In this document: positions 34,451 to 53,277 of the stretch, piece by piece
Numbering within the stretch: the first letter of the stretch is position 1
Layout of the letters: the number at the start of each line of letters is the position of its first letter
NCBI GenBank assembly: GCA_018713055.1
Contig: DVFW01000042.1
Coordinates: 5,802 to 69,801, forward strand
DNA: 64,000 nucleotides
Source of the DNA: Candidatus Scatavimonas merdigallinarum
GTDB lineage: Bacteria; Bacillota; Clostridia; Oscillospirales; Acutalibacteraceae
Direction of reading: 5' to 3'
Position numbers and translations under genes: made by a program
The notes under the pieces: generated by a model
What the model saw: only the letters and a program-made list of their open reading frames with translations
The model's database searches: none
Told to the model about the DNA's origin: nothing

Positions 34451-34729
34451 TCATTCTGCGGGGTCCACCTCATTTTTTTCAGAAAGCTTATTTTCCAGCT
34501 CTTCGATGCAGTCTTCGCAAATCAGCTTTCCTTCATGGGAGATAAGGTTTGAAATACTGTTGCAAAAGGTGCATCCAGGCGTATATTTTCTGATAACAAT
34601 GGTGTCTTCTGTGGGGAAAAGCTCAATGGAAGTACCGCTTTCCAATTCGTAAGATTTTCTTAATGGTTTTGGAATAACAATACGACCCAGGTTGTCGACC
34701 GTGGCAAAAAAGTTTGTGGCGTTTTTCAT
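34451..34729 (-). CDS. AbrB/SpoVT-family DNA-binding protein with C-terminal CxxC...CxxC module
   Basis: 92 aa. The N-terminus VDNLGRIVIPKPLRK is the looped-hinge-helix signature. The C-terminus is CTFCNSISNLISHEGKLICEDC. Confidence 0.8.
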   Translation of the reverse strand: MKNATNFFATVDNLGRIVIPKPLRKSYELESGTSIELFPTEDTIVIRKYTPGCTFCNSISNLISHEGKLICEDCIEELENKLSEKNEVDPAE

Positions 34730-37400: not shown

Positions 37401-37528
37401 TGATAACGTTCTTTTTTATAGTCTGTGCTGTTTTTTTTCTGTCATACAATGAAAAACAGAAATCAAGAAATCTCCATACCTGCTGTTGGTGCCTTTTTAC
37501 CGTATAATGGCGAAGTGAAAAATACAGG

Positions 37529-37557
37529 TTGACAAAACAGAATAAGTGGGATATAAT
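37529..37557 (+). promoter_or_regulatory. Consensus sigma-A promoter of the T-box leader
   Basis: TTGACA (37529-37534), a 17-nt spacer, then TATAAT (37552-37557). Confidence 0.75.
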
Positions 37558-37559
37558 GC

Positions 37560-37820
37560 AGATAAATGGTAAACCGATGATTAAGAGGAGTACCTGTAAA
37601 CGAGAGGGTTTGAAGAGAGCTGCAGACGGTGGAAGTGCGGCAGCCCTTTTACAGGGAATGGGCTTATGAGGGCCGGGTGAAATAGCAGTAGCCAGGACGG
37701 GAACTCCACCCGTTACCAAGGGAGCATACGTAACAGCGTATGGGAAGAGAGGGCCTTTTGGCCAATTTGGGTGGTACCACGGAAGTTTGCTTTCGTCCCT
37801 TTGGGGCGAGGGCTTTTTTT
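37560..37820 (+). promoter_or_regulatory. T-box riboswitch leader, probably Trp-specific
   Basis: Conserved T-box sequence AATTTGGGTGGTACCACGG (37764-37782). Terminator GCTTTCGTCCC-TTT-GGGGCGAGGGC followed by T7 (37789-37820). Candidate specifier UGG followed by A at 37630-37633, downstream of an AGAGA box. Confidence 0.75.
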
Positions 37821-39232: not shown

Positions 39233-39250
39233 TGAAATAAAAAATAGCAA

Positions 39251-39290
39251 AGACGGTATGCACAATACATCTGTGCATACCGTCTTTTTT
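39251..39290 (+). terminator. Rho-independent terminator of trpB2
   Basis: AGACGGTATGCACA-(loop)-TGTGCATACCGTCT forms a 14-bp perfect stem followed by TTTTTT. Confidence 0.85.
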
Positions 39291-39511
39291 ATCGTTTAAG
39301 GCTGCTCTCTTTGCTCACCAGTTTTGGTTTTAAAATTTTGTTTTGTACTTTCTGGCAACGTCTGTTAATGATGCCAAGCAGAATTTGGACAGCATTGGCT
39401 CCGGTTGCTTTGTATAAGCAAAACTTTTTGCCATAGGTTAACACCTTTTTGTTTTCATGGATTTGCATGCATTGTTTCTTGAAAAATAATGTTTTTGCCT
39501 AAATAGCAATC

Positions 39512-39548
39512 AAAAGTTGACCGATCCAGGTCAACTTTTTCTTTTTTT
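39512..39548 (+). terminator. Second terminator-like hairpin immediately upstream of the phage-like cluster
   Basis: AAAAGTTGACC-GATCCA-GGTCAACTTTT forms an 11-bp perfect stem followed by TCTTTTTTT. It lies 73 nt before the terS start. Confidence 0.6.
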
Positions 39549-39620
39549 AACCGTTTTATGTAAGAGGGGCGGCATACGTCAGCGCCTCCTTTTACGGGAA
39601 TAGCGAAAGGGGGATAAGGC

Positions 39621-40127
39621 GTGGAAAAAAATACGGTACAAAGGTTGACAAAACAGCAGCGTCTTTTTTGCCGGTGCTATGTCAATACCGGCAATGCCAG
39701 AGAAGCCGCCGTACAGGCCGGCTTTATCTCTGACGCACAGAAAAACGGAGAAGCACTTTTATGCAAAAGCGCAATTACAAAAGAGATTGCACGGTTGCTT
39801 AAGCAACGCAGAGAAATGCTTTCCTTGAAAGCGCTCAGCGGTTACGAACGACTGGCTTTTGGCAGCATTGCGGATGGTATTCGTCTGCTATATATAGAAG
39901 ATCCGCTGCAGACTGACCTGGAAAGTATGGACCTTTTTAATATTGCAGAAATAAAAAGGCCAAAAGACGGGGCTATGGAAATTAAATTTTTTGATCGGCT
40001 CAAGGCCCTTGAAAAGCTTATGCAGGCAAGAACAGAAGAAGATACGCCCTGTGTTCCGTTTTATGCGGCTTTACAACAGGGAGCGCAGGCGCTTGAAAGG
40101 TATGGCAATGAGAGGCTGGAGGAATAG
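39621..40127 (+). CDS. Phage terminase small subunit
   Basis: 168 aa, GTG start after AAGGGGGA. The segment LTKQQRLFCRCYVNTGNAREAAVQAGF is the HTH typical of Terminase_2/P27-type TerS. Confidence 0.75.
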   Translation: MEKNTVQRLTKQQRLFCRCYVNTGNAREAAVQAGFISDAQKNGEALLCKSAITKEIARLLKQRREMLSLKALSGYERLAFGSIADGIRLLYIEDPLQTDLESMDLFNIAEIKRPKDGAMEIKFFDRLKALEKLMQARTEEDTPCVPFYAALQQGAQALERYGNERLEE

Positions 40128-40130
40128 CCA

Positions 40131-41402
40131 TTGGAGTTTAAAGCTTTTTCTGAAAAACAGCTTCGTGTTTTGACATGGTGGTGTGAAAAAAGCAGGTATG
40201 CAAAAAAGGATGCAATTATTTGTGACGGCGCGGTAAGAAGCGGAAAAACCGTTTGCATGGGTATTTCTTTTATCGCATGGGCTTTTTACCGGTTTGACGG
40301 GGCAAATTTTGCAATGTGTGGGAAAACAATACGTTCTTTAAAAAGAAATGTGGTCACGGCAATTTTGCCCGTTTTAAAGCAGTTGGGTTTTGCCTGCACG
40401 GAAAAGCTGTCTCAAAACCTTTTAGAGGTCAGCATAGGCGGCCGTACAAACTGCTTTTATCTGTTTGGCGGGAGGGATGAATCTTCGGCTTCACTGATAC
40501 AGGGGATGACGCTTTCGGGCGTGCTGTTTGACGAAGTGGCGCTGATGCCCAAATCGTTTGTAGAGCAGGCGCTGGCAAGATGTTCTGTAGAAGGGTCCAA
40601 GTTTTGGTTCAATTGCAATCCACAATATCCGCAGCACTGGTTCAGACAGGAGTGGATTTTAGATAAAGCAGGAAAAAATGCGCTTTATATTCATTTTAAG
40701 ATGGAAGATAACCCCTCTCTTTCTCCTAAGATGCTTGCGCGCTACAAAAATCTGTATACAGGAACCTTTTACCAACGGTTTATTGAGGGAAAATGGGTGT
40801 CGGCACAAGGGCTGGTATACCCGTTTATGACCGCTGATAATATGTGTTGGGATACACCAAAAACAGACGCGGACGAGTTCGTGATTTCCTGCGACTATGG
40901 AACCGTAAACCCGGCTTCGTTCGGGTTGTGGGGTCATTACATAGATGGATGGTACAGAGTGGACGAGTATTATTATGACTCCAGAAAAGAGGGCGTGCAA
41001 AAGACAGATGAAGAACATTACCAGGGCTTATGCAGGCTTGCGCAGGAAAAGACTGTCCGCTGTGTAATTGTCGATCCATCTGCGGCAAGCTTTATGGAGG
41101 TTATACGCAGACATGGACGCTTCAAGGTATTGCCTGCAAGTAATTGTGTGCTGGACGGGATTCGCAGCGTTGCGAGCGCGCTGAAGCAGGGGGAAATTAA
41201 AATTTGCAAAAGCTGTACAGACGCTCTGCGGGAGTTTGGGCTTTACCGTTGGAAAGAGAACGGGCTGCACGATGCGCCTGTTAAAGAAAACGACCATGCC
41301 ATGGACGATATACGCTATTTTGTTTCAACCTATTTAAACCGGAGCGACGATGGTATATTTGCCATTGCCGCGCGACGCACAGGAGGTAAAGCGTGGGATT
41401 AA
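40131..41402 (+). CDS. Phage terminase large subunit (PBSX-like)
   Basis: 423 aa with Walker A DGAVRSGKT, Walker B LFDEV and a C-terminal RNaseH-like nuclease region (VIVDPSAASF...DHAMDDIRY). Confidence 0.85.
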   Translation: MEFKAFSEKQLRVLTWWCEKSRYAKKDAIICDGAVRSGKTVCMGISFIAWAFYRFDGANFAMCGKTIRSLKRNVVTAILPVLKQLGFACTEKLSQNLLEVSIGGRTNCFYLFGGRDESSASLIQGMTLSGVLFDEVALMPKSFVEQALARCSVEGSKFWFNCNPQYPQHWFRQEWILDKAGKNALYIHFKMEDNPSLSPKMLARYKNLYTGTFYQRFIEGKWVSAQGLVYPFMTADNMCWDTPKTDADEFVISCDYGTVNPASFGLWGHYIDGWYRVDEYYYDSRKEGVQKTDEEHYQGLCRLAQEKTVRCVIVDPSAASFMEVIRRHGRFKVLPASNCVLDGIRSVASALKQGEIKICKSCTDALREFGLYRWKENGLHDAPVKENDHAMDDIRYFVSTYLNRSDDGIFAIAARRTGGKAWD

Positions 41403-42601
41403 TAGATAGAAGAAAAAAGAAAAAACAAACTTTTTCCGCTGTGCAGACGGCCTGCACGGAGCGCCGCAGCGTGCATCCGTTTACAGAGTTCAACGGATAT
41501 ATACCGTTAAAGACGGCGCAGCACGGGTTATATGCCGCTATGCGGGAGGCAATCCCTATTGTTGACGCCGCAATTTTAAAAACGGTGCGGCTTGTGGGAG
41601 ACTTTACAGTGGAATGCCAGAGCTTGCAGGCGCAACGGCAGCTGGCTGATTTTTTAAAAAATGTGCAGGTAGGCGGATGTTCCCGCGGGATTGTGCCGTT
41701 TTTATCTTCTTATCTGGAGCAGATGCTGACCTATGGTACGGCGGCAGGGGAAATCGTATTATCGGCAGATGGGAGGTCGATTGGCGCGCTGTACAATGCA
41801 GATCTGGACAATATTGCGTTGCGGGCAGAGCAGAATCCACTGGAGGCAACGGTTTACTGCCGGGATGAAACAGGGCGCTGCATCCCGGCTCCATACCAGG
41901 CATTGCTTTGTGTGACGCCGTTAAACCCCAGGCCGGGAGCGCTTACAGGAACATCTGTACTTAGCGGACTGCCGTTTGTAAGCGGAATTCTTTTAAAAAT
42001 TCTGCATACGATCGGCCTCAATTGGGAACGTGTGGGGAATGTGCGCTTTGCGGTAACATATAAGCCCTCCGGGGATGTATCGGAACGCGCTTTTACAAAG
42101 GAGCGCGCGCAGCAGATTGCCGACCAGTGGGGGAAAGCCATGCGCAATACAGGGCAGATCAGTGATTTTATTTCGGTCGGAGATGTAAATATCCGGGTTA
42201 TTGGCGCAGACAACCAGGTGCTGGACAGCGAAGTACCAGTCAGGCAAATATTGGAACAAATTGTTGCAAAGCTTTCTATTCCTCCGTTTTTGCTTGGGCT
42301 TTCCTGGTCAAGCACAGAGCGGATGTCCAGCCAGCAGGCAGATATCCTGACCAGCGAGCTGGAATATTACAGAAATCTTTTAAACCCTGTTATTTGTAAA
42401 ATATGCAGCTTGTGGCTGCGGTTGCACGGCTTTGAAGAAACGTTTGAGGTGTGCTGGAACAATATCAATTTGCAAGATGAAGTAGAGCTTGCAAACGCAA
42501 GGCTTTTACGTGCGCAGGCAGAAAAAACAGAGCAAGAAACACAAGAGGGGATGAAAAATGAAACAGGGACAAATTATCAAGAGCGCGGCGCAGGCGCTTA
42601 A
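41393..42601 (+). CDS. Phage portal protein
   Basis: 402 aa immediately after terL, overlapping it by 10 nt. It has a portal-like core (IPPFLLGLSWSST...). The call rests on size and position. Confidence 0.7.
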   Translation: MGLIDRRKKKKQTFSAVQTACTERRSVHPFTEFNGYIPLKTAQHGLYAAMREAIPIVDAAILKTVRLVGDFTVECQSLQAQRQLADFLKNVQVGGCSRGIVPFLSSYLEQMLTYGTAAGEIVLSADGRSIGALYNADLDNIALRAEQNPLEATVYCRDETGRCIPAPYQALLCVTPLNPRPGALTGTSVLSGLPFVSGILLKILHTIGLNWERVGNVRFAVTYKPSGDVSERAFTKERAQQIADQWGKAMRNTGQISDFISVGDVNIRVIGADNQVLDSEVPVRQILEQIVAKLSIPPFLLGLSWSSTERMSSQQADILTSELEYYRNLLNPVICKICSLWLRLHGFEETFEVCWNNINLQDEVELANARLLRAQAEKTEQETQEGMKNETGTNYQERGAGA

Positions 42602-43532
42602 ACCGGAAGAGCTGGCGCAAATTCATACCTATACCCGCAGGGAAATGGCACAGGAAGAAATTTACACCTTTTCGGTTGTTTTATGCGACAACGATATTGA
42701 CCGCGATTTTGAATGCTTTGACGAGGAAGCGCTTTATACGCTTAAGAGACTTTTTGTGGGAAAAACAGGCATTTTTGACCACGACTTAAAAGCGGAAAAC
42801 CAAACGGCACGTATTTATGACTGCTATGTGGAACGGCTGCAGGACAAAAAAACACAGACAGGCAAGCCTTATATGCGTCTTGTGGGCAAGGCGTACCTGC
42901 CGCGTTGCGCAAAAAATGAGGATCTGATTCTGGCGTTGGACAGCGGTATCCAAAAAGAGGTCAGCGTAGGTTGCGCGATAAGCAGGCGTACATGCTCTGT
43001 TTGTGGGGAAGATATGGGCGCCTGTGCGCATCAAAAAGGCAAAAAGTACCGCGGACGGCTATGCTACGCTACATTAAGCGGCATAACGGACGCTTACGAG
43101 TGGAGTTTTGTCGCAGTGCCGGCACAAAGGCAGGCCGGTGTATTGAAAGCTTTAAAAAAAGAGGATATGGAGGGGAATACCTTGCAGAACATTATAAAAA
43201 GCCTTTGTGCGCAGCAGCCGGTTATGCTGTCTGCGCAGGACGCACAGGCATTATATGCACACATTCGCGGGCTGGAATGCGACGCAGGCTACGGAAGCGC
43301 TTACAGGCAGGAGCTAAAGGATGAGGTTGTCCGGCTGAGCATGCTGGTGCAGCCGGAAATTGCAAAGGAAACAATGCAAAGTTTAACCGAAAAAATGGAT
43401 ATAGAAGAGCTCAAGGCGTTTAAAAAAGGATATATGGAAAAAAGCGCAAAGGTTTTGCCGTTGCGGCCGCAGCTTTTTGGGCCCAGAGAAAGCGGGAAGA
43501 AGACGGAAGAAAATACCGATTATAAAATTTAA
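42558..43532 (+). CDS. Prohead protease-like N-terminal domain fused to a scaffold-like helical C-terminus
   Basis: 324 aa. The segment IYTFSVVLCDNDIDRDFECFDEEALYTLKRLFVGKTGIFDHD resembles the HK97-type prohead protease N-terminus. The C-terminal half is charged and helical. It lies between the portal and capsid genes. Confidence 0.5.
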   Translation: MKQGQIIKSAAQALKPEELAQIHTYTRREMAQEEIYTFSVVLCDNDIDRDFECFDEEALYTLKRLFVGKTGIFDHDLKAENQTARIYDCYVERLQDKKTQTGKPYMRLVGKAYLPRCAKNEDLILALDSGIQKEVSVGCAISRRTCSVCGEDMGACAHQKGKKYRGRLCYATLSGITDAYEWSFVAVPAQRQAGVLKALKKEDMEGNTLQNIIKSLCAQQPVMLSAQDAQALYAHIRGLECDAGYGSAYRQELKDEVVRLSMLVQPEIAKETMQSLTEKMDIEELKAFKKGYMEKSAKVLPLRPQLFGPRESGKKTEENTDYKI

Positions 43533-43646
43533 CGGATAAAACAGATCCGGCGGCAGGAAACGCGGCCCGTAAGGTGAAAAAGATTGCCTGAACCAGGCCG
43601 GGTTTGATTTTTCTATGTAAAAAAACAACGGAAAGGAAGCTAAAAA

Positions 43647-43982
43647 ATGAATGTGAGTTTTAACGGATATGATGAAAAAGTATTAACTTTTGTATGCACA
43701 GACAAGCTGGAAAAGGGTACGCCGGTAAAGCTTTCGGGCAACGGTACGGTTACGGCTTGTGCAGACGACGACGTATTTATTGGCATTGTGCTTTCTGTGC
43801 GGGACGGGTTTGCCGCTGTGCAAACAGGAGGCTATGTACAGCTGGTACCTTCCGGCAGTATTGCGATTGGGTATCAGAAAATTTCGGCTGCAACAGATGG
43901 CAAGGTCAAGGCGGACACAGACAATGGGCGTGAATATCTGGTGCTGCATACAGAGCAGGACAATGTAGGCGTCATTCTTTGA
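43647..43982 (+). CDS. Small head decoration / capsid cement-like protein (DUF2190-like)
   Basis: 111 aa, Gly/Val-rich and beta-type, directly upstream of the major capsid gene. Confidence 0.45.
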   Translation: MNVSFNGYDEKVLTFVCTDKLEKGTPVKLSGNGTVTACADDDVFIGIVLSVRDGFAAVQTGGYVQLVPSGSIAIGYQKISAATDGKVKADTDNGREYLVLHTEQDNVGVIL

Positions 43983-44010
43983 CAATAGGGATATAAGGAG
44001 GCAATAGATT

Positions 44011-45018
44011 ATGGCATTATATGAAACAATAGCGCTGGAAAAGGGTATGTACGGGGCAAGAGGAAAAAGCATGACGCAGGTATTGGAGGAGATGGATCCT
44101 TCAGAAAACTACCGCGACACACCTCTTGAAGGCTTGGACGCTTTTCAGCGACAGCTTAAACGGTTTGATATTAAGGTAAGCGGTGCGCATTCGGACAGTG
44201 TGGAAAAGTTTTTTCAGAGCAGTTCATCCGCGGCCCTTTTTCCGGAATATATAGGCCGCGCCGTTAAACAAGGGATGGAGGCGGCGGACATCCTTCCCAA
44301 TATCATTGCCGCGGTAACTAAAATTGAGGGAATGGATTACCGCAGCATTGTGTCTACACCCACACAGGACGACAAGGAATTAAAGCCGGTGGCAGAGGGC
44401 GCAATGATTCCGCAGACTGTAGTAAAAACACAGGAAAACCTGGTGAAGCTTCATAAAAGAGGCAGAATGCTGGTATCTTCCTATGAAGCGCTGCGTTTTC
44501 AGAGGCTGGATCTGTTTACCGTAACGCTGCGGCAGATCGGTGCGTATATTGCAAGGGCGCAGTTGAAAGACGCGGTAAATGTACTGCTAAACGGCGACGG
44601 AAACAGCAACCCGGCCGGTGCAGTTGCGGCTGACGGCGAAACGCTTGCATACAGCGACCTGCTAAAGCTTTGGGGCGCGCTTTCCCCCTATGAGCTTAAT
44701 ACTATTTTGGCTCCAACGGCGGTCGTCCAGAAGATTTTGGCCATGACGCAAATGCAGGACGCACAGGCGGGGCTGACATTTCAGGGGACAGGTAAAATGG
44801 TAACGCCTATGGGCGCCACACTGTTGCACGTACCTTCTATTGAAGGAAATACGATTATTGGGCTTGATAAAAACTGCGCGCTGGAAATGGTGCAGGCAGG
44901 GGAGGTCATCACCGATTATGACAAGCTGATTGACCGGCAGCTGGAACGCGCTACAATCAGTTGTATTGCCGGGTTTGCCAAAATTTTTACTGACTCTGCC
45001 AAAAAGCTTACATTTTAA
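44011..45018 (+). CDS. Major capsid protein
   Basis: 335 aa with a strong AAGGAGG RBS. Called from position after protease/decoration and from size. No motif check is possible by eye. Confidence 0.7.
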   Translation: MALYETIALEKGMYGARGKSMTQVLEEMDPSENYRDTPLEGLDAFQRQLKRFDIKVSGAHSDSVEKFFQSSSSAALFPEYIGRAVKQGMEAADILPNIIAAVTKIEGMDYRSIVSTPTQDDKELKPVAEGAMIPQTVVKTQENLVKLHKRGRMLVSSYEALRFQRLDLFTVTLRQIGAYIARAQLKDAVNVLLNGDGNSNPAGAVAADGETLAYSDLLKLWGALSPYELNTILAPTAVVQKILAMTQMQDAQAGLTFQGTGKMVTPMGATLLHVPSIEGNTIIGLDKNCALEMVQAGEVITDYDKLIDRQLERATISCIAGFAKIFTDSAKKLTF

Positions 45019-45035
45019 CACATGGGGGCGGCGGT

Positions 45036-45398
45036 ATGAACTTTAAAGAGGTATATGAACGTTTTTTATTGATTGCGGATATGGATCAGGAAGAGGGTTC
45101 TAAGTGGGCCGTACTGTGCAACGAAGCAATAGAGGATATACAGAATATGTGCAAAAGCGGTACGGATATACAGTTAAACGGCAGGCGGCTTTCAGCCGCT
45201 GCCGCTGCCCTGGCGTTTTATAAAATGGCGCTTATGCAAAACGCTGCAGAGGACGTTTCTTCTTTTAAAGCGGGCGACATAAGCATTCAAATGGGAAGTC
45301 GCTGTACAAAAGCGCAGCAGGCCTGGCTGTGTGCAAAAGCGCATATCAGCGACCTGATACGCGACGAAGATTTCCTTTTTGAACAGGTGACAATATGA
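45036..45398 (+). CDS. Head-tail connector (gp6-like) protein
   Basis: 120 aa, helical, first gene after the capsid gene. Confidence 0.45.
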   Translation: MNFKEVYERFLLIADMDQEEGSKWAVLCNEAIEDIQNMCKSGTDIQLNGRRLSAAAAALAFYKMALMQNAAEDVSSFKAGDISIQMGSRCTKAQQAWLCAKAHISDLIRDEDFLFEQVTI

Positions 45399-45787
45399 AC
45401 ACGTATACGATGAAAACCATACAAAGGTTGATTAAAACTTTTGGAAATACAATTGAGGTACTGCTGGACGGACAGCTGCAGGAAACGGGAAGAGCGTTTA
45501 TACAGCCTTTGCGCTATAAGAACAAGATTTATCTAGATGGCTATTATTTGCCGCCGGGCTATTGCGACGGGGGACATTTTCTTTATATAGGTCCACCTGA
45601 TATTCATTTTGTACGCCCGTATGAAAATCTTGTGATCCGATGTGAAGAGCTAAGTGAAAGCTATACGGTTAAGCGTGCGGAAACATATAAATTTGCAGGC
45701 AGACCCGTTTATGTATGGGCTGTGCTTACGCCCTGCACTGCCGATTTGGAAGAAAGCGCGCAGAGTCGACAGGAGGGAGCGGTATGA
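45395..45787 (+). CDS. Head closure / head-tail adaptor-like protein
   Basis: 130 aa, beta-rich, coupled by ATGA overlaps on both sides. Confidence 0.4.
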   Translation: MNTYTMKTIQRLIKTFGNTIEVLLDGQLQETGRAFIQPLRYKNKIYLDGYYLPPGYCDGGHFLYIGPPDIHFVRPYENLVIRCEELSESYTVKRAETYKFAGRPVYVWAVLTPCTADLEESAQSRQEGAV

Positions 45788-46554
45788 AAACGGCGCAGGA
45801 AACCGTGCAATCTGTTTTAGAATGGCTAAAAACCGGGGATGAACTGCAGGAGGTTTCTTTTGTTCCGTCTTACCAAAGCAAAAGCTTTGCAGTTCCGGTA
45901 AAAAAGCCAGTGGCTGCGGTAGGGAAGCACAGTATTTTTGCCTGTGCAGAGGCCAAAAGCAGCGAAATACAGGCGGTACAGGAAAAAGGGCTTAGGATCG
46001 CTGTGGATGTATTTGTCCCTGTTCTGGATGGCGGCGAGGCCTGCGCGCAACTGCTGGATAAAATAAGCGCCAGGCTTCTGGAGCATGTACAGGAAGGCCG
46101 GTATGAGATCAAAACGGGCGCAGTACAATATCAGAGCAGCACAGGTGCATTTACAGCACAGCTTCTGCTTACCATCATGCAGATACAGGCGGCCCAGCAG
46201 GAAGCAGACAAGAGAAATGTGGTTATGCATGTAAACGGCGCCCGGTTTTATGCGCAAAATGTAACGGTAACAGAAACAGAAGACCTGTACCCGATAGAGT
46301 GTTATGGGGAAAGGGTGCCGTATGCTTCAATCAACCGCGGACGGCGCTATGAAGTTATGATTCAAAAACCTGTAACAAAGGACAATCTCTCGGAAGCGTT
46401 TACACAGATAAATGCAACGGTATCTGTACGCAATGCAGGCGGCGGCATTTATCTGTATGGGTGTAATGTAAAGCGTATAGAAAGCCATGTGGAAAACGGG
46501 CTTTATTATATGGATACGATTGTACTGACGGCACAAAGAAAAGAAACCGTATAG
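45784..46554 (+). CDS. Neck/tail-terminator-like N-terminal half fused to a beta-rich, possibly tube-like C-terminal half
   Basis: The ATG at 45784 overlaps the previous stop. The 256-aa product sits where tail completion, sheath and tube genes sit in Mu/PBSX-type modules. Assignment is by position only. Confidence 0.3.
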   Translation: MKTAQETVQSVLEWLKTGDELQEVSFVPSYQSKSFAVPVKKPVAAVGKHSIFACAEAKSSEIQAVQEKGLRIAVDVFVPVLDGGEACAQLLDKISARLLEHVQEGRYEIKTGAVQYQSSTGAFTAQLLLTIMQIQAAQQEADKRNVVMHVNGARFYAQNVTVTETEDLYPIECYGERVPYASINRGRRYEVMIQKPVTKDNLSEAFTQINATVSVRNAGGGIYLYGCNVKRIESHVENGLYYMDTIVLTAQRKETV

Positions 46555-46567
46555 AAAGGGGCGTAAA

Positions 46568-46726
46568 ATGGAAACGCAGACAAAATATACAGCTGTACAA
46601 CAGGAACTGTCCCAACGGTATATGGAGCAAGCGGAAAACGCAAGGTTGTTGTCGGATGTTTTCGAACGCGACAGCCGCCGTTACTCAAATACGCTCAAAG
46701 AAGAAGAGGAGGTGCAGGCTCTGTGA
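46568..46726 (+). CDS. 52-aa helical micro-protein in the tape-measure position
   Basis: Hand translation gives METQTKYTAVQQELSQRYMEQAENARLLSDVFERDSRRYSNTLKEEEEVQAL*. Its stop overlaps the GTG start of the LysM gene. It falls below the ORF-track cutoff. Confidence 0.45.
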   Translation: METQTKYTAVQQELSQRYMEQAENARLLSDVFERDSRRYSNTLKEEEEVQAL

Positions 46727-47247
46727 ACCACCCACCTATACGGTACAGAGGCGTAGAACTGCACCATAATCCTAAAAGCATACAAATTGAAGAGAACAAA
46801 AGCTATAGCGAACATTTTTTTGTCAACGCCCTCGGGGCGGTGCAGGAATCCGGAAGAAAGGCGCGGGTTGTGTCAGGAGAAGGGGAATTCTTTGGAAAGG
46901 ATTGCCTTACGCAATATAATGCGGTATTGGAGTTGTTTACAAGCAGAGAAGGCGGGCTTTTGTCTGTAAGCGGCTATACGCCCTTTTATGCGCGTTTTGT
47001 TTTATTTACGCTGACACAGCCGCCTCTGGAAAATTTTTTAAGTTACCGTTTTGTTTTTATAGAGGACATGTCGCTGATGCCGCAGGGAATAAAAGTCAGA
47101 CAGCAGACCCATACGGTAACGGAAAACCAAACGCTTTGGGATATTGCTTACCTGTATGGTATACCGGTAGAGTCGCTTTTGATAAATAATCCCGGGATAA
47201 GCAGGCCAGATGCACTGACAAGCGGACAAGAGGTGAAACTTTTATGA
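46723..47247 (+). CDS. LysM-domain tail protein (XkdP / Mu gp43 / P2 gpX-like)
   Basis: 174 aa with a C-terminal LysM domain: HTVTENQTLWDIAYLYGIPVESLLINNPGISRPDALTSGQEVKL. Confidence 0.7.
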   Translation: MNHPPIRYRGVELHHNPKSIQIEENKSYSEHFFVNALGAVQESGRKARVVSGEGEFFGKDCLTQYNAVLELFTSREGGLLSVSGYTPFYARFVLFTLTQPPLENFLSYRFVFIEDMSLMPQGIKVRQQTHTVTENQTLWDIAYLYGIPVESLLINNPGISRPDALTSGQEVKLL

Positions 47248-48185
47248 CTTTTACGGCAATTACCGCCGACAGAAAAATGTTTACGCTTTGCAGTCCGCTG
47301 TCCTGTTGTATGGAATATGAGCAGGGGATACCGGCAGACGCTTTAACAGCCGCGTTTCCTTACAGATCCGACATACCGCAGCTTGCGTATATTGTGGTGC
47401 AGAAGGATAAAAAGCCTGTTTTTACAGGCGTAATTGACGAACAGCGCTTTTTATCTGTAGAAGGAGAAGGCATGGTTATGCTTTCTGCCAGAAGCCTGGC
47501 GGCGCTGCTGCTGGACAATGAAGCAATGCCGCAAAACTATAACAACCCGGATGCCCAGACAATTTTTTTGCGGCATATACAACCTCTTGGCATTACACAG
47601 TACAGCTGCGAAAAAAAACCAAGAGCAGCAAGCTTTACGGTGGATAAGGGGTCGACGCATTGGCAGGTTCTTGAAAGTTTTTGCAGGGTTTGTCTGGACA
47701 GTTACCCTGCAGTGGATGAAACCGGACGTGTATGTATGTGCGGACGTCCGGGCGGGGAAAACGCGCTTTTGTTTGCAAATACAGGCGAAGGAATCCGTTT
47801 TACCAGGTTTGAAAAAACAGTGAAACGGTGCAAGCGACTGTCGGAAGTGCTTGTAAAAACATCTGTAGACGGCGCCTATTCGACGCCGGTGCGAAACGCC
47901 GTCGCCCTTTCAGAAGGCGTTATAAGGCGGCGGTATTTAAATGCATCGGAACTGTCTGGGAACAGTGTATTGGACGCAGATAAAATGATCCGGGAAGGGG
48001 AGTATGCATCGGTTGAAATTACACTTAGCTGCCCCAGTCCCCTTTTAGGGTGTATGGGACGTACCGCACGGATTCTGTATGGAGAAGAAACATACGACGG
48101 ATTATATATTAGCGGGCTGCAGTATACCTGTGCACGGGAAGAGGAAAAAACGGTTCTGTTATTTTCAAAATACAGGAAGGAATAA
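47244..48185 (+). CDS. Baseplate hub / late control gpD-like protein (XkdQ / Mu gp44-like)
   Basis: 313 aa. Position and size match the gene that follows the LysM protein in PBSX/Mu modules. Confidence 0.55.
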   Translation: MTFTAITADRKMFTLCSPLSCCMEYEQGIPADALTAAFPYRSDIPQLAYIVVQKDKKPVFTGVIDEQRFLSVEGEGMVMLSARSLAALLLDNEAMPQNYNNPDAQTIFLRHIQPLGITQYSCEKKPRAASFTVDKGSTHWQVLESFCRVCLDSYPAVDETGRVCMCGRPGGENALLFANTGEGIRFTRFEKTVKRCKRLSEVLVKTSVDGAYSTPVRNAVALSEGVIRRRYLNASELSGNSVLDADKMIREGEYASVEITLSCPSPLLGCMGRTARILYGEETYDGLYISGLQYTCAREEEKTVLLFSKYRKE

Positions 48186-48189
48186 AATT

Positions 48190-48537
48190 ATGTGGCTTTT
48201 AAAAAATATGGCGCAAAATGGAAGGACAGAGAAAAAAGCAGATAAAGGAAAAATATCGTCTGTATCTCAATCTTTTGTTACGGTACAAACAGCGCTTGAA
48301 CATCGGAAAATTCCAGTGGTCTGTCCATATGGGCTTGCATATGTACCGGCCCCGGGGGAAGAGTGTGTAACGCTTCCTCTGCAAAACGGGCAAATCTGCA
48401 TTGGTGCTCCCGTAAAAGACAAGGAGTTGCAGCCGGGGGAAATTATGCTGTATTCTGCCGGCGGCGCGACGTTGGTTTTAAAAAATGACGGAACGATTTT
48501 GGCGAATGGAAAAGTCCTGGAAAGCGGGGATGGATAA
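48190..48537 (+). CDS. Baseplate spike / assembly protein V-like (XkdR / Mu gp45-like)
   Basis: ATG at 48190, 115 aa. The segment PGEIMLYSAGGATLVLKNDGTILANGKV resembles the gpV/gp45 N-terminal OB region. Confidence 0.5.
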   Translation: MWLLKNMAQNGRTEKKADKGKISSVSQSFVTVQTALEHRKIPVVCPYGLAYVPAPGEECVTLPLQNGQICIGAPVKDKELQPGEIMLYSAGGATLVLKNDGTILANGKVLESGDG

Positions 48538-48885
48538 ATGGATACAGCATTAAATGACGCTGGGGATTTTGCTCTGGACGGCAGAGGAATGCCTTATCTT
48601 TTGAGCGGCCTTGCGGAACTAATGCAGCGGGTGAAGCTGTGTTTACAGATCAAAAAGGGAAGTTTTCTTTATGACCGCAACCTGGGGTCGGAACTTCATA
48701 CCTTGGAGCACGGCACGGAGCTTTTGCAGCAGAGAGCGCAGATGCTTGTATATGAAGCGGTTGCCGCGGTGCCGCAGGTCAGGCTTTACAACATTCAGGC
48801 TGATTTTCCTCAGGACGGCCCTTTGAAATTATCACTCGATATTGATTTTGCCGGCGAAACGGGAACGCTGGAGGTGACGCTTTAA
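48538..48885 (+). CDS. Baseplate wedge protein gpW/gp25-like (XkdS-like)
   Basis: 115 aa with typical size and position directly upstream of baseplate J. Pattern: LLQRAQMLVYEAVAAVPQVRLYNI. Confidence 0.55.
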   Translation: MDTALNDAGDFALDGRGMPYLLSGLAELMQRVKLCLQIKKGSFLYDRNLGSELHTLEHGTELLQQRAQMLVYEAVAAVPQVRLYNIQADFPQDGPLKLSLDIDFAGETGTLEVTL

Positions 48886-49955
48886 TGGACAGCTATCAGG
48901 AAATTTTGGACAGAATGAAAGAAAAATATAAGGAACTCAGCGGATATGACGCCGACGGGGCGTCGGACATTGGTATACGAATGCAAGTGCTTGCAGGCGA
49001 AGTTTTTTCGCTGAATTGCTATGCACAGTGGATGATCAGACAAATGTTCCCGCAAACGGCGCAGGGGCAACAGCTGGATTATCATGCGCTTGAGCAGGGG
49101 CTTACCAGAAAACCCGCAATTGCGGCAAAGGGGACTTTGTCTTTTTATCTGGAAGAGGCGGCCGGCGAGGACATACAGATTCCTGCCGGTACGGTGTGCG
49201 CAACGGCGGGCGAAGACGCCATGCGTTTTGTAACAACACAGGACGCGACGCTTTCTCAGGGAAGCATTGTGGCAGCCGTTCCGGCTGCGGCGCAGGAAGA
49301 AGGAGCAAAGGGAAATGTGGCGCCCCAGAGTATAAGCGTCATGGTCACACCGCCGGCGGGGATTGCTTATGTAAAAAATACCGTTCCTTTTACAGGCGGA
49401 GAAGACGAAGAGACAGACGAACATCTGCGGCGGCGCATATTGGAAAATCTGCGAAATCCGCCGCGCGGGACAAACAGTGCTTTTTATAAACAGGCAGCTG
49501 AAAGCGTAGACGGCGTATATTCTGCCGGCGTAGCGCCGAAGGCGCGCGGGACGGGAACCGTTAATGTATATATTGCAAAACAGGGGACGGCGGCGCCGCA
49601 ATCGCTTGTGGAGCAGGTACAGGAAAAATTGGAGGCGGAAAGGGAAATTAACGTGGACGTCCTTGTGGCGTCTGCACAGGCGGTTCCGTATGATGTACAT
49701 GCTGAAATAGAGATTGCAGACGGATATACATGGAGTACAATAGAAAGCCAGTGCGAGCAGGCAATTCGTGCGTATTTTGATACAGTCGGCGTTGGACAGG
49801 CGGTACGGACTTCTGGTATAGGCGAGGCAATTTTTCACGTGGCGGGAGTAAAAAGCTATATTTTTGACGATTATTATACAAACGATATACAGGCGCTTGC
49901 ATCCCAGCTTTATGTAGTCAGAAATATTGTATTGACAGAAAGAGGGAGTACATAA
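48885..49955 (+). CDS. Baseplate J-like protein (XkdT / Mu gp47 / P2 gpJ)
   Basis: 356 aa. N-terminus YQEILDRMKEKYKELSGYDADGASDIGIRMQVLAGEVF is typical of the Baseplate_J family. Confidence 0.75.
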   Translation: MDSYQEILDRMKEKYKELSGYDADGASDIGIRMQVLAGEVFSLNCYAQWMIRQMFPQTAQGQQLDYHALEQGLTRKPAIAAKGTLSFYLEEAAGEDIQIPAGTVCATAGEDAMRFVTTQDATLSQGSIVAAVPAAAQEEGAKGNVAPQSISVMVTPPAGIAYVKNTVPFTGGEDEETDEHLRRRILENLRNPPRGTNSAFYKQAAESVDGVYSAGVAPKARGTGTVNVYIAKQGTAAPQSLVEQVQEKLEAEREINVDVLVASAQAVPYDVHAEIEIADGYTWSTIESQCEQAIRAYFDTVGVGQAVRTSGIGEAIFHVAGVKSYIFDDYYTNDIQALASQLYVVRNIVLTERGST

Positions 49956-50521
49956 TGGGCGCAGTGGCATCTATGATCCAAAAACTTGCGCCGCTTGGTG
50001 TTTATGCACTGCAACAGAACAGCGCGGTTTATAAAGAACTGTGCGCGTATGCGGCGGCTCTGGATATCCTTGAAGCAACGCTTTTGCAGGCACAGCAGGA
50101 ATGCTTTATTTGTACGGCGCAATCATACGGGTTGTCGCATAGAGAGATTAATATAGGGCCGGTCAGGGAAGAACTTACCCTGGAAAAACGCAGAGAAATG
50201 TTGTTGTCCAGAGCGGCTCTAAAGCAGGACGATTTTAATAGAAGCGGCGTCGAACAGATGTTAAGTGCGCTTGGACTGGAATTTACGCTTTTTGAGCTTC
50301 CACATCAGCAAACGCTCCATATTGATTGTAAAGGCAGCTATACGCAGGCACAGCGCAAATGGATTTCTTCGCAGGCAATTGCGCAGCTTCCTGCGCATCT
50401 GGATGTGCTTTTGGACTTTAGAAACCTGCAATGGAGCACAATTGATGCAAAAAACCTGACGTTTGCTTCTATGGACGCCAAAGCAATGACATGGAAACAG
50501 ATTGAGAGCTACGGAGTATGA
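49955..50521 (+). CDS. Baseplate/tail protein gpI-like (XkdU / Mu gp48, DUF2313-like)
   Basis: 188 aa. N-terminus KLAPLGVYALQQNSAVYKELCAYAAALDILE resembles YmfQ/XkdU-type proteins. It follows the J gene. Confidence 0.6.
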   Translation: MGAVASMIQKLAPLGVYALQQNSAVYKELCAYAAALDILEATLLQAQQECFICTAQSYGLSHREINIGPVREELTLEKRREMLLSRAALKQDDFNRSGVEQMLSALGLEFTLFELPHQQTLHIDCKGSYTQAQRKWISSQAIAQLPAHLDVLLDFRNLQWSTIDAKNLTFASMDAKAMTWKQIESYGV

Positions 50522-50539
50522 TGAAAGGAAGGACAGAAA

Positions 50540-51004
50540 ATGGCATCTTCAGAAAAAACGGCAAATTTGGGGTTGAACCTGTGGGAACCGGAAGATAAAC
50601 CGATCAGGGCCGACTTTGTGGCTGATAACCAGCTGATTGATCAGGTAGTCGGTACACATACAAAAAATTCCAATATCCACATAACAGCGTCGGAAAAAAC
50701 AAAGCTCAACGAGCCTTATCAGGTAAAAATGTTTGCCGGAACAGGAAGCGCCAGTTTTACCTATACGTTCGATTTTTCCCCTAAATTTGTAGTGGTCTAT
50801 AAAAAGAACGCCCCCATGTTTGTGTATAGTGGCGGCGCAAGTGTTATAAACGGGGCGCTTGCAGCCTCTGTTTATGGCGCGACGCAGGGCGCGCAGCTAA
50901 ATGCGAACAAGCTGACGCTGACGCAACAATCTGCGTCGGTCAACGGCATACGCTGCAATTTAAATGAAGAAGACGGACAGTATGTAATTGTGGCGTACCG
51001 GTGA
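50540..51004 (+). CDS. Short tail-fibre / receptor-binding-like protein
   Basis: 154 aa. N-terminus KTANLGLNLWEPEDKPIRADF is the baseplate-attachment motif common at tail-fibre N-termini. The remainder is beta-rich. It is the last gene before the terminator. Confidence 0.45.
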   Translation: MASSEKTANLGLNLWEPEDKPIRADFVADNQLIDQVVGTHTKNSNIHITASEKTKLNEPYQVKMFAGTGSASFTYTFDFSPKFVVVYKKNAPMFVYSGGASVINGALAASVYGATQGAQLNANKLTLTQQSASVNGIRCNLNEEDGQYVIVAYR

Positions 51005-51020
51005 CATTAAAAGACCGTAC

Positions 51021-51057
51021 AAAAAGGCGGAAGCTTCTTAAGAAGCTTCCGCCTTTT
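51021..51057. terminator. Strong bidirectional terminator closing the phage-like cluster and the convergent mfd operon
   Basis: AAAAA-GGCGGAAGCTTC-TTAA-GAAGCTTCCGCC-TTTT, a perfect 12-bp stem. Confidence 0.85.
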
Positions 51058-51069
51058 ACGTTTAAAGCA

Positions 51070-51882
51070 TTAGCGGTCTTTTCGGTCCGCACCCAGGTCG
51101 ATATCAATTTCTGCCGTATCGTATTTTTGCAGTTTGTTCTTTTTAGGCTGATAAATCGTTTTAGAAGGGGCTTTTCCCTGTAAACGGCCACGTCTGCCGC
51201 CAGAGGCTGCGGCAAGCATTTTTCTGCGTTTGTTTATACAGGTAAATACTACGCAGATGACGCCGATTACTGCGCCCACAATCATGGCAACGCCTAAATA
51301 CAGCATCCACTGAAAGGTGGTCTCGTCATCTGCCGATTTGTTGTTTTTTATAAAGTTAAAATCGTTTGTACCATCCATACTTCCGGAAAAATCAAGCGCC
51401 ATTTCCCAGTCGGAAGCATCCAGCTCGTTTGTATCGACCGATTTGCTTACGTCATACAATTCGTTGGGGGCACTGGAAACGGAGCCGTCATTATTATAGT
51501 CTGCATAGCCATCGTCCGATGAAGTGGAATAACCGTCTGGCGACGGTTCCACAAAAGAAAAATTGTTCTGATATGAATCGTCATAGTAGTCATCGTAATC
51601 GTTGTAGTCATTATAATCGTTGTATGAGGAAGTTTGGCCGCTGGAATCCGGTTGAGAATCGTAGTTGTCTTCAACAGTGCTGGAATCCGGCAATGGCTCC
51701 GGCTGCGGCGGCTCTGTCTGCGATTCGACACCGCTGTCAGAGTATGTGGGGTCTTCATAAATATCATCCGGTTCTCCAACCACGTTGCTGCTGTCTGTCA
51801 CGGCAGCTGCATAGTAGCTGCAAAGACAGGCCAGAAAAACGGGAAGGAGCAATTGCACAAATATACGCAGGCGTTGTTTCAT
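51070..51882 (-). CDS. Signal-peptide plus C-terminal TM-anchored protein with an Asp/Tyr/Asn/Ser-rich low-complexity ectodomain
   Basis: ATG at 51882, 8 nt after GGAGG. N-terminal signal-like helix. Low-complexity runs include NDYNDYNDYDDYYDDSYQNN. TM helix WMLYLGVAMIVGAVIGVICVVF, then a basic tail. Confidence 0.6.
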   Translation of the reverse strand: MKQRLRIFVQLLLPVFLACLCSYYAAAVTDSSNVVGEPDDIYEDPTYSDSGVESQTEPPQPEPLPDSSTVEDNYDSQPDSSGQTSSYNDYNDYNDYDDYYDDSYQNNFSFVEPSPDGYSTSSDDGYADYNNDGSVSSAPNELYDVSKSVDTNELDASDWEMALDFSGSMDGTNDFNFIKNNKSADDETTFQWMLYLGVAMIVGAVIGVICVVFTCINKRRKMLAAASGGRRGRLQGKAPSKTIYQPKKNKLQKYDTAEIDIDLGADRKDR

Positions 51883-52021
51883 TTGCCATGCCTCCAAAAA
51901 AGATTAATACGACTTATAATACCACACAATGGACAAATTTTTCAATACAGATGCAGATTTTCAATTGTTTTTCTGCAAACTGTGCAGTAAAAACCGGTTA
52001 ACAGAAAGCAATAACGGCATA

Positions 52022-53155
52022 TTACAGCACGTCTTTAAACATGGTCGGCTGGTAACTGTTGATAGCGGCGTCATTTTTCTCGCATTCATACGCTTTGGCC
52101 TGCGCATCCATATCTTTTTGATATTCTTCAAATTTCATGGAATACAGCACCGAGCTGCGCTGGGATTCTTCAAAAACATTTTCCGCTTCTTTATTGATGT
52201 CGCCCTTATAGACAAGGTATAAAACAGCGGTGGAATCTTCCCCCACCTGAATTACAGTTGCCTGATTGGCGTCAAGCCCTTCCAGCGCTTCTTTCAGTTC
52301 GTCACCCAGAGAAGAATCTTCTAAAATTTCCGTATTTGTAACGGAAGGATCTTCTTCCAAACCCGCGGCTGTGGTGTAAGCCTGCGCAATTTCGTCATAG
52401 GTTTTGCTGCCGTTGTTGATCTGCTGTGCATAAGCGTTGAAATCGTCTGTGGCTTGTTTGACTTCCTCCTCACTGAAAGCTACAGAGGTTGAATCGGTGG
52501 AGGAAGCGTCGTCGCTTTCACTGTCGGTTGTTGTATACAAATTCATAGGCAAATATGCGTAATTGGTATAGTTTTCTATGAAATAGGCCTTAATTTCGTC
52601 GTCAGAAACAGCCTTTTCACCGCCTATGCCGTAGATTGCGTCAAAAAGCGCGTTGTATTTGGCGGCAAACAGATATTCTGCACGATAAAAAGAGTCCTTG
52701 GAAATCCCCAGCTTTTCATACGTTTGTCCGTAATAGCTCCATGCCTGGTCCGCATTGCTTTCTGCAGCAGTAAGCTCCGTTTCCGAAAGAGTCAGACCCT
52801 TCTGAGCAAAAAGCTTTTCAGTGTTTAACAGGTTTTTGCAAGCGTTTTCAGCCTCCTGCAAAATATAATCCTGTGCGTTTACCTTGTCGCCGTTTGGATC
52901 TTCAATTTCCTGCGTAAGAACGTCCACCGCTTCTGTTGCGGCTTCTGTTCCCGATTGCGTTGCGCTTTCTGTTTGGGCGGAAGAAACCTGGTTGGAAGCA
53001 TATCCGTACGCACCCGACATATAGTAGATATATGTGCCGATAGAAAGCGTGTTTATGTCGTCTTTATATGACCATGATTGGTCAGCGCAACTGGCGCTGA
53101 TTGTAAGCATACCCATTGCAAGGGCCAAAGCAAGCAGCTTTTTTGTTGTTTTCAT
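52022..53155 (-). CDS. Lipoprotein, SurA-N/PrsA-like chaperone domain without a recognisable parvulin domain
   Basis: ATG at 53155. Lipobox LTISASC. The body is a helical Ala/Glu/Tyr-rich domain. It lies immediately downstream of mfd. Confidence 0.5.
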   Translation of the reverse strand: MKTTKKLLALALAMGMLTISASCADQSWSYKDDINTLSIGTYIYYMSGAYGYASNQVSSAQTESATQSGTEAATEAVDVLTQEIEDPNGDKVNAQDYILQEAENACKNLLNTEKLFAQKGLTLSETELTAAESNADQAWSYYGQTYEKLGISKDSFYRAEYLFAAKYNALFDAIYGIGGEKAVSDDEIKAYFIENYTNYAYLPMNLYTTTDSESDDASSTDSTSVAFSEEEVKQATDDFNAYAQQINNGSKTYDEIAQAYTTAAGLEEDPSVTNTEILEDSSLGDELKEALEGLDANQATVIQVGEDSTAVLYLVYKGDINKEAENVFEESQRSSVLYSMKFEEYQKDMDAQAKAYECEKNDAAINSYQPTMFKDVL

Positions 53156-53277
53156 AATGGTATGATCGTTCCTTTCGTTTAATACAAATCGTAAGTAATT
53201 ATACACGTTTGGGACAAATTTGTCTATAATAATTCCATCATTTTAAAAGGAGTTCACAATTTAATTAGAAACAAAAG

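Follow-up and report, generated by a model that had tools for sequence, protein, structure and literature searches.

A widespread candidate gene transfer agent cluster with a reduced myovirus-type tail in Candidatus Scatavimonas merdigallinarum and other Oscillospirales

Introduction

Domesticated phage particles and elements resembling gene transfer agents (GTAs) are already known; what is new here is a very widespread family with a progressively minimised tail. We analyzed a stretch of 64,000 nt from Candidatus Scatavimonas merdigallinarum (contig DVFW01000042.1; hereafter the window, to which all positions refer unless a relative is named), in which a cluster of phage head and baseplate genes lies between trpB2 and the mfd operon. 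In this cluster a head, a packaging motor, a neck, one tube domain and a baseplate are kept by selection at a non-mobile, vertically inherited locus. No description of the cluster family was found in the literature searched, outside which most subscription-journal papers lay.

Judged by terminase family and baseplate order, the closest named system is PBSX of Bacillus subtilis (xtmA/xtmB, xkdE–xkdV). Both have a large terminase of the TIGR01547 family and a Terminase_2-type small subunit, and in both the genes run in the order head, neck, tail, LysM protein (XkdP), hub (XkdQ), small protein (XkdR position), gp25-like protein (XkdS), Baseplate_J (XkdT), gp48-like protein (XkdU) and fibre; both are also chromosomal and without self-propagation. 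The cluster differs from PBSX in having no sheath (XkdK), free tube (XkdM), chaperone or tape measure (XkdO), and thus no contractile tail. Its locus has neither the xre/xpf regulators nor the xhlAB/xlyA (holin-amidase) lysis cassette, its flanks are trpB2 and the mfd operon, and it is only 30–50% identical to any isolated Bacillus-type phage. Whereas PBSX is confined to a few Bacillus species, the cluster family spans at least 482 species.

The RcGTA-type elements of Alphaproteobacteria and CcGTA are likewise head-tail clusters of structural genes only, vertically inherited under purifying selection, and in RcGTA-type elements lysis and regulation are encoded elsewhere. The cluster shows the same GTA features: structural genes without integration, replication or immunity genes, vertical inheritance and purifying selection. 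A further likeness is the leader-level control point of CcGTA, which uses anti-termination; the cluster has a terminator-like hairpin in its leader. In contrast to the cluster, RcGTA derives from a siphovirus and possesses both tube and tape measure, and there is no sequence relationship between the two. Capsid-forming phage-inducible chromosomal islands (cf-PICIs) also place a compact terS-terL-portal-protease-capsid-connector module in bacterial chromosomes. However, cf-PICIs have int, alpA and rep genes, are mobile between att sites and lack a tail and baseplate, whereas neither the window nor the flanks examined in 67 species contained an int, regulator or rep gene, and the cluster occupies a fixed locus and includes a baseplate. 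Tailocins (R- or F-type) are tail-only and lack head and packaging genes, unlike the cluster with its full head and packaging module.

In biology the closest system is FpGTA of Faecalibacterium prausnitzii, a proposed gene transfer agent (Borodovich et al., Nat Commun 2026, PMC12946183). It comes from the same bacterial order and habitat and has an integrase-less head operon of about 10 kb (PMC12946183). A comparison through published annotations (supplementary file 4, PMC12946183) rather than sequences shows that FpGTA combines a capsid protein of the N4-gp56 type with a Prp-like protease, a podovirus tail nozzle and BppU-type fibres, and that its genes for baseplate, fibre and lysis form a second operon at a distance of 125 kb, whereas in the cluster a single operon encodes the HK97/PF25209 capsid protein, the PBSX terminase and a baseplate of the Mu/P2 type; the two appear to be independent domestications of different lineages. 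An initial interpretation of the window, made from the letters and open reading frames (ORFs) and referred to below as the sequence-only reading, had held that no such compact type was described in Clostridia. That statement is outdated because FpGTA has been published, although FpGTA is podovirus-derived and unrelated.

Nanopore sequencing of faecal virus-like particles revealed GTA-like packaging of 4.6–8.9 kb host fragments in Ruminococcaceae, Oscillospiraceae and Christensenellaceae, with the packaging locus identified only in Faecalibacterium (PMC12946183), and a mouse study reported similar packaging patterns, mostly without loci (10.64898/2026.07.08.737213). Genomes with such packaging in the faecal data included those of Ruminococcus callidus (4.6 kb), CAG-115, Onthomonas and Gemmiger (PMC12946183). 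PBSX, as is also well established, packages host DNA and kills but does not transduce (PMC12946183). Host-DNA packaging and transfer have been demonstrated for RcGTA, and FpGTA particles, for which no visible tails were reported, hold small host DNA fragments; the cluster, in contrast, is known here from its genes alone.

Results

A scan with one genome per species gave portal relatives in at least 482 species genomes of Oscillospirales, and among the portal matches listed nearly all were from Acutalibacteraceae, Ruminococcaceae, Oscillospiraceae or unclassified Clostridia. Homologues of the capsid protein amounted to at least 8,000 clusters, typically 74–76% identical. The gene order from terS to the gp48-like gene was identical in about 60 of the 80 loci fetched, and the distance from the terS start to the J end had a median of 9,988 nt across relatives. 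No close isolated phage was found, the best identities being ≤28% for the portal, about 30% for baseplate J and about 50% for terL.

The cluster has stayed at one chromosomal site. In relatives whose capsid protein was 74–75% identical, one of them a dockerin-bearing Ruminococcus-like organism, it occupied the same locus, with the shared order tadA, abrB-like gene, optional spmA-spmB-gerA, cluster, two small convergent genes and mfd. All 21 conspecific contigs with the exact trpB2 protein had the cluster adjoining, so that no empty site was seen among them, and the capsid protein occurred in 381 collection blocks versus 340 for trpB2. Among 149 flank ORFs surveyed in 67 species, HflX, GerA, ABC transporters, GntR and HtrA predominated, and the families matched by at least three of these ORFs included no integrase/recombinase, holin or amidase.

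Selection on the cluster was evaluated by comparison with the closest relative, Candidatus Scatovicinus merdipullorum (L001), which is colinear with the window over 19.7 kb including flanks at 89% nucleotide identity. The ratio of nonsynonymous to synonymous substitution rates (dN/dS) was well below 1 for all 17 genes (0.04–0.18), with terS, terL and portal among the most constrained (0.04–0.10). The dS values were host-like (0.27–0.69 in the cluster versus 0.29–0.55 in flanking host genes). No ORF was disrupted, and an apparent stop in the L001 portal gene only trims the C-terminus by 7 residues. Across 15 species with GerA beside the cluster, the pairwise distances of terL, portal, capsid and J tracked those of GerA (Pearson/Mantel r 0.88–0.94; 0 of 2000 permutations as high), and the capsid protein evolved more slowly than this neighbouring host protein. 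The shared locus in distant relatives, the dN/dS values and the co-divergence with GerA bear out the proposal of the sequence-only reading that this is a domesticated locus and not a decaying prophage.

The cluster itself comprises 17 tightly packed forward-strand ORFs (ORF 1 to 17, Table 1) that overlap or are spaced by a few bases; the ORF listing and an independent gene call on conspecific metagenome contigs, which returned the same 17 genes, agree with the initial description. The start of ORF 9 was corrected to 45784 (256 aa, with an AGGAGG ribosome-binding site) and that of ORF 13, from gene calls, to 48190 (115 aa). The cluster starts 388 nt past trpB2 and ends 65 nt short of the convergent gene, close to the 390 and 66 nt first given, and the terminators claimed for both sides correspond to hairpins at 39249–39287 (after trpB2), 39512–39539 and 51022–51057. 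GC content, described beforehand as host-like, was unremarkable at 0.45–0.49 inside versus 0.45–0.52 outside. About 50 of the roughly 70 window ORFs were annotated using Pfam, PHROG and NCBIfam; apart from the cluster all were housekeeping genes (dcw cluster, ftsZ, mutS2, uvrC, spmAB, gerA, T-box-trpB2, mfd-pth-prs and PPDK), and, as had been noted, none encoded an integrase, recombinase, replication protein, repressor, holin or endolysin.

The head and packaging module is complete and forms the most conserved part of the cluster, with terL 58–73% identical to that of relatives. Profile searches supported the initial labels of terS, terL, portal and capsid, as well as those of the LysM protein, hub, gp25-like protein, J and gp48-like protein. 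The capsid protein matched PF25209 and, weakly, the HK97 model, and did not match the N4-gp56 model. Whether the predicted 324-aa protein is a scaffold or a head-maturation protease is not settled, and the 111-aa virion protein is missing from some relatives. Sequence searches of the PDB with the capsid protein, the portal and a profile of the terminator domain described below returned nothing. Of the products initially called neck proteins, the two encoded directly after the capsid gene would weakly qualify by position and a few orthologue matches to head-tail adaptor and head closure families, whereas ORF 9 proved to be something else.

ORF 9 joins a tail terminator to the sole tube protein of the cluster, so that the tail is not simply absent. 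Iterated local hidden Markov models (HMMs) placed a terminator-like domain at residues 31–149 and a tube domain at residues 168–273 of the 279-aa version of the ORF, and showed that it unites 161-aa and 130-aa families encoded by separate genes in the relatives L020 and L026. Among solved structures, the profile of the 130-aa family matched tail tube proteins (8q01_A at 6e-4, with gp56 and an XkdM-related protein as further matches). The AlphaFold2 model of ORF 9, for which 18 sequences were used (pLDDT 81.5), had two domains joined by a disordered linker. In Foldseek it matched tube proteins of phage 812, Mu, monocin, phiCD508, Hcp and AFP/PVC (5e-6 to 1e-3) as well as gpU-type tail terminators (2gjv_A, 3e-4; lambda gpU, 3e-3); the Foldseek output did not give the domain of each alignment, and the domain assignment is that of the HMM results and the secondary structure. 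Homologues of ORF 9 were recovered by exhaustive HMMER search, where word-indexed searches with a single sequence or a profile gave 2–3 proteins, and the phage database contained no match to it. We also considered ORF 9 as merely a long terminator resembling phiCD508 gp53, and rejected this because about 24 relatives have separate terminator and tube genes, which flank the sheath gene in L020 and L026.

The cluster contains no sheath gene and no tape-measure-sized gene, and no sheath HMM match was obtained. The gap from the capsid to the LysM gene is 1.7 kb in the window and 0.83–3.7 kb (median 1.64 kb) in relatives, and therefore leaves no room for a sheath plus a tape measure. ORF 10, which encodes a 52-aa helical protein, is homologous to the C-terminus (FERDxRRY motif) of a 95–125-aa ORF at the tape-measure position in the sheath-bearing L020 and L026. 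It may be a vestige of the tape measure; this label is positional only, because the phage database gave only chance-level matches for the 125-aa protein at that position.

The order of the baseplate genes was that claimed at the outset for a complete Mu/PBSX-type baseplate, with the exception that the gpV-like label of ORF 13 gained no support, this protein matching only phrog_25991, which has no known function. Although the sheath is gone in nearly all lineages, few genes of the cluster are as constrained as that of the gp25/gpW-type 'sheath initiator'.

Comparison of the relatives revealed a graded series of tail forms. Full tails (IMG/VR L236, L237, L242–L244 and L250) had a gap of 5.8–6.8 kb, a sheath HMM match of 1e-74 and a portal about 50% identical to that of the window; the simple ORF caller yields spurious antisense ORFs in GC-richer loci, and the gene maps of L237 and L242 are partly resolved. 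L020 and L026 represent a short sheath-bearing form, whose 3.6-kb gap encodes, in order, the 161-aa protein (phrog_25177), a 345-aa sheath (PF04984/PF17482; phrog_279, 4e-29), the 130-aa protein (phrog_27038), a 128-aa protein and a 95–125-aa protein. These would be very short contractile tails, midway between the full-tail relatives and the window form. In about 24 loci the sheath is lost while the terminator and tube remain separate genes; in the window and about 22 loci the terminator and tube are fused; in 9 loci the stopper (neck protein 2) is fused to the tube and the terminator is lost; 5 loci have no tube; and L063 and L072 have no baseplate, the terminator of L072 being fused to a fibre-like domain. 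In a neighbour-joining tree the tail forms grouped by clade, with the fused L049 inside an unfused clade, which suggests that the terminator-tube fusion may have arisen repeatedly; the tree is midpoint-rooted, rough and without support values.

Several of these loci contain further details. The region 11610–14417 of L020 and 14375–17182 of L026 holds the sheath, a free tube, a chaperone-like ORF of 128 aa and the 95–125-aa ORF at the tape-measure position. At 8483–9337 of L072 the terminator domain is joined to a domain resembling the 154-aa fibre protein of the window, with no baseplate after it. L063 (13998–14417) and L088 (MT835508.1, 21602–27705) are head-only variants ending after a terminator-like gene.

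The leader ahead of terS contains a palindrome that was present in 49 of 55 relatives. Its outer AARTTG/CAAYTT was nearly invariant while the inner three pairs covaried; 96.9% of cells paired, 9 of 11 pairs changed on both sides, and none of 500 shuffles matched this. Within the fetched loci (1.56 Mb) the motif occurred 38 times, in 36 cases 55–136 nt upstream of terS. A metagenome scan with the commonest variant refuted the idea that the palindrome is specific to the cluster: only about 22–25 of 80 sites adjoined terS, and the remaining ones lay ahead of genes of phages or mobile elements, among them fibre-like, leucine-rich repeat, excisionase-like and primase-like genes. About 45 of the 80 sites had a -10-like TATAGGTG/TATAAGTG motif, which was outside the search pattern, 15–16 nt past the palindrome. 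The window region 39500–39630 had a fold z-score of -3.1, and relatives had analogous second hairpins or -10-like TATAGGTG/TATAAGTG motifs.

Because the palindrome and the -10-like motif also front phage and mobile-element genes, the leader is best read as a composite regulatory unit common to the cluster and the mobile elements of the clade. It looks like a clade-wide promoter/operator type, and may represent either an operator that overlaps the -35 region of a promoter dependent on an activator or a terminator-promoter pair. A sigma-70-like candidate further upstream was not conserved in L001. By eye, no consensus fitted a reading of the leader as a sporulation sigma-factor site or Spo0A box.

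Table 1. Positions of the genes and regulatory features of the cluster, with the evidence for each
Feature	Position	Strand	Evidence and remarks
Sigma-70-like promoter candidate TTTGCA-17-AATAAT	39462..39490	+	consensus scan only; upstream of leader hairpin; weak
Palindrome/hairpin AAAAGTTGACC-N6-GGTCAACTTTT, then T-run	39512..39539	+	81 nt upstream of terS; terminator-like leader or operator
Second leader hairpin, opening with -10-like TGTAAGAG	39559..39596	+	just ahead of terS ribosome-binding site
Small terminase subunit terS, 168 aa	39621..40127	+	PF03592 6e-17, phrog_51; dN/dS 0.047
Large terminase subunit terL, PBSX family, 423 aa	40131..41402	+	TIGR01547 3e-54, phrog_2 2e-46
Portal protein, 402 aa	41393..42601	+	phrog_30703 4e-140
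Scaffold or head-maturation-protease-like protein, 324 aa	42558..43532	+	phrog_16951 2e-94 (no known function); weak protease matches 1e-4; position conserved
Small virion or decoration-like protein, 111 aa	43647..43982	+	phrog_4588 4e-19 'virion structural protein'
Major capsid protein, HK97 fold, 335 aa	44011..45018	+	PF25209 7e-17, phrog_3922 2e-99; dN/dS 0.038
Neck protein 1, probable head-tail adaptor, 120 aa	45036..45398	+	family in 61 loci; 2 orthologues match phrog_541 head-tail adaptor; position and weak homology
Neck protein 2, probable head closure/stopper, 130 aa	45395..45787	+	family in 63 loci; orthologues match phrog_161 head closure Hc1
Tail-terminator/tail-tube fusion (ORF 9), 256 aa	45784..46554	+	residues 1-136 terminator-like, 144-256 tube
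Helical protein (ORF 10), candidate vestigial tape-measure or tail-lumen protein, 52 aa	46568..46726	+	36-37 loci; dN/dS 0.17
LysM protein with Mu gp43 (DNA_circ_N)-like N-terminus, 174 aa	46723..47247	+	PF01476 1.5e-8, PF07157 6e-4; XkdP/tube-initiator position
Baseplate hub, gp44/gpD-like, 313 aa	47244..48185	+	phrog_177 7e-13; PF22255 weak
Small baseplate protein (ORF 13), XkdR position, 115 aa	48190..48537	+	phrog_25991 in 31 orthologues; spike/gpV is a candidate identity
gp25/gpW-like wedge protein ('sheath initiator'), 115 aa	48538..48885	+	PF10934 7.5e-5, phrog_43/120; dN/dS 0.042
Baseplate J wedge protein, 356 aa	48885..49955	+	PF04865 1.4e-57, phrog_6 4e-75
Mu gp48/P2 gpI-like wedge protein, 188 aa	49955..50521	+	PF10076 2e-6, phrog_521 1e-10
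Short fibre or receptor-binding candidate, 154 aa	50540..51004	+	N-terminal 58 residues match phrog_33092, likewise 10 orthologues
Bidirectional terminator hairpin	51022..51057	.	16-bp stem, A-tract and T-tract; fold z-score -6.6; between cluster and convergent gene

Discussion

We consider it probable that the cluster descends from a PBSX/Mu-type myovirus that was domesticated long ago and has since been inherited vertically, and that it makes DNA-filled heads joined to a baseplate by an extremely short tail that does not contract. Since the terminator ring is present only once in each tail, a tube subunit fused to it 1:1 could not assemble into a long tube; the tube would thus be a single hexameric ring with its own terminator domain as the cap, and a length ruler would be unneeded. 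The channel of such a particle would run through the portal, adaptor, stopper, terminator-tube ring, LysM initiator and hub. By analogy with PBSX-type terminases and known GTAs, the heads would most likely package pieces of the host chromosome by the headful mechanism. Expression would probably depend on a trans-acting factor reading the palindrome-plus-promoter element ahead of terS, release on lysis of a subpopulation via genes elsewhere, and the baseplate and short fibre would bind neighbouring cells, with the particle acting as a GTA. The cluster is in this respect a strong candidate for the still-sought gene transfer agents of gut Clostridia.

Several points weigh against this interpretation. 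Neither lysis genes nor a regulator turned up in the 64-kb window or within about 10 kb of the cluster in relatives, and since phage and mobile-element genes have the leader element as well, the cluster could be activated by phages instead of the host. The one-ring model is drawn from the stoichiometry of the fusion, and the number of independent fusions, read from the rough tree described above, is itself approximate. That the particle cannot package its own genes is a supposition depending on capsid capacity, and it is hard to see how DNA would be passed across a Gram-positive wall by a one-ring tail that has no sheath, tape measure or lytic domain. The evidence here consists of genes, from which particles, packaged host DNA and transfer are inferred.

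The same missing lysis genes and regulator would also fit a helper-dependent, satellite-like element that stays silent until a phage late activator reads the shared palindrome-promoter, with the phage perhaps adding sheath, tape measure and lysis, and the particles interfering with its burst or riding on it. The existence of head-only relatives agrees with such an element, but only the shared promoter element, found ahead of fibre-like, excisionase-like and primase-like genes in metagenome contigs with the -10-like motif at a fixed spacing, actually favours it. We regard it as quite unlikely: int, rep and att sites are absent, the cluster stays at one locus and has diverged in step with its host across families, and it has a baseplate, fibre, tube and terminator of its own under purifying selection, which would be needless if tails were stolen, while its terminator-tube fusions are incompatible with a long helper-type tail. 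A domesticated particle that does not transfer DNA, whether a PBSX-like killer, a public good linked to lysis or a container that never delivers its DNA, is in our view unlikely as well, though it has a precedent in PBSX itself, the nearest named terminase relative, and the LysM domain and intact baseplate suggest cell-wall binding. However, the sheath, long tube and tape measure, with which PBSX and tailocins kill, are exactly what was lost here, and because selection constrains terS, terL and portal more than most genes of the cluster, DNA packaging itself would be the selected function.

A recent prophage remnant from which the integration, replication, lysis and central tail genes have been deleted would likewise consist of structural genes only and lack part of its tail module. 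Such a decaying prophage is effectively excluded and we give it hardly any weight, since all ORFs are intact with low dN/dS and host-like dS, the gene order recurs in hundreds of species at a locus common to distant relatives, no empty site was found, and the capsid protein evolves more slowly than neighbouring GerA.

Beyond the domesticated particle with a very short tail, we put forward more tentatively, as a possibility, that the cluster represents a very widespread, undescribed GTA family of gut Oscillospirales (Acutalibacteraceae, Ruminococcaceae and Oscillospiraceae) that is the missing basis of the GTA-like packaging in faecal viromes beyond Faecalibacterium, and in which a myovirus tail was pared stepwise to a single terminator-fused tube ring without sheath or tape measure. 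If true, this would be a natural transition from a myovirus to a podovirus-like form, kept as a living series of intermediates. The family could explain the published packaging data, and it offers a concrete, easily recognized GTA candidate for many taxa beyond Faecalibacterium, carried by several cultured strains, among them Caproicibacter fermentans EA1 (L037), Caproiciproducens galactitolivorans YR-4 (L060), Ruminococcoides intestinihominis CLA-AA-H171 (L080), Faecalispora jeddahensis JCD (L035) and Ruminococcus sp. LCP21S3_E8 (L075). It also shows a contractile tail dismantled while the head and baseplate stay functional, and the independent fusions (terminator-tube, stopper-tube and terminator-fibre) are natural experiments on tail length without a tape measure. 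Virus-prediction pipelines and phage databases include clusters of this family as 10–13-kb 'viruses' (IMG/VR UViGs and 'Bacteriophage sp.' in GenBank), and prophage counts in gut Clostridia are therefore inflated.

Additional observations

Many IMG/VR 'viral genomes' of 9.5–14 kb (among L212–L291) consist of this cluster alone, trimmed at its boundaries, and the cluster also occurs in GenBank 'Bacteriophage sp.' records from human faeces (MT835508.1, MT835952.1, MT836604.1, MT838993.1 and MT835769.1). Such records are probably chromosomal fragments.

In the gut and rumen contigs L089–L168, AARTTGCATA-N4-TATGCAAYTT is followed 15–16 nt on by a TATAGGTG-like motif ahead of unrelated phage or mobile-element genes, an arrangement comparable to that at 39512–39560 of the window. 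Rfam has no family for the cluster leader, and its sole match in the window was a T-box leader (RF00230, 105.7 bits) at 37568–37803 (+), ahead of the trpB2-like PALP gene; a 110-aa ORF on the opposite strand (37387–37719) overlaps the T-box and is probably spurious.

Two convergent genes, at 51070–51897 (-) and 52022–53206 (-), always lie between the cluster and mfd and are kept there in distant relatives. They matched no Pfam or NCBIfam family above threshold; one encodes a membrane protein with a long acidic low-complexity stretch and the other a lipoprotein.

On the other side, an AbrB/SpoVT-type gene (PF04014, 79–92 aa) is a conserved upstream neighbour, located at 34451–34729 (-) in the window and at 5067–5306 (-) in L084. 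A regulatory link from this gene to the cluster is possible. In L084 it is divergent to terS and directly adjoins it, and in the window spmA-spmB-gerA and T-box-trpB2 lie in between.

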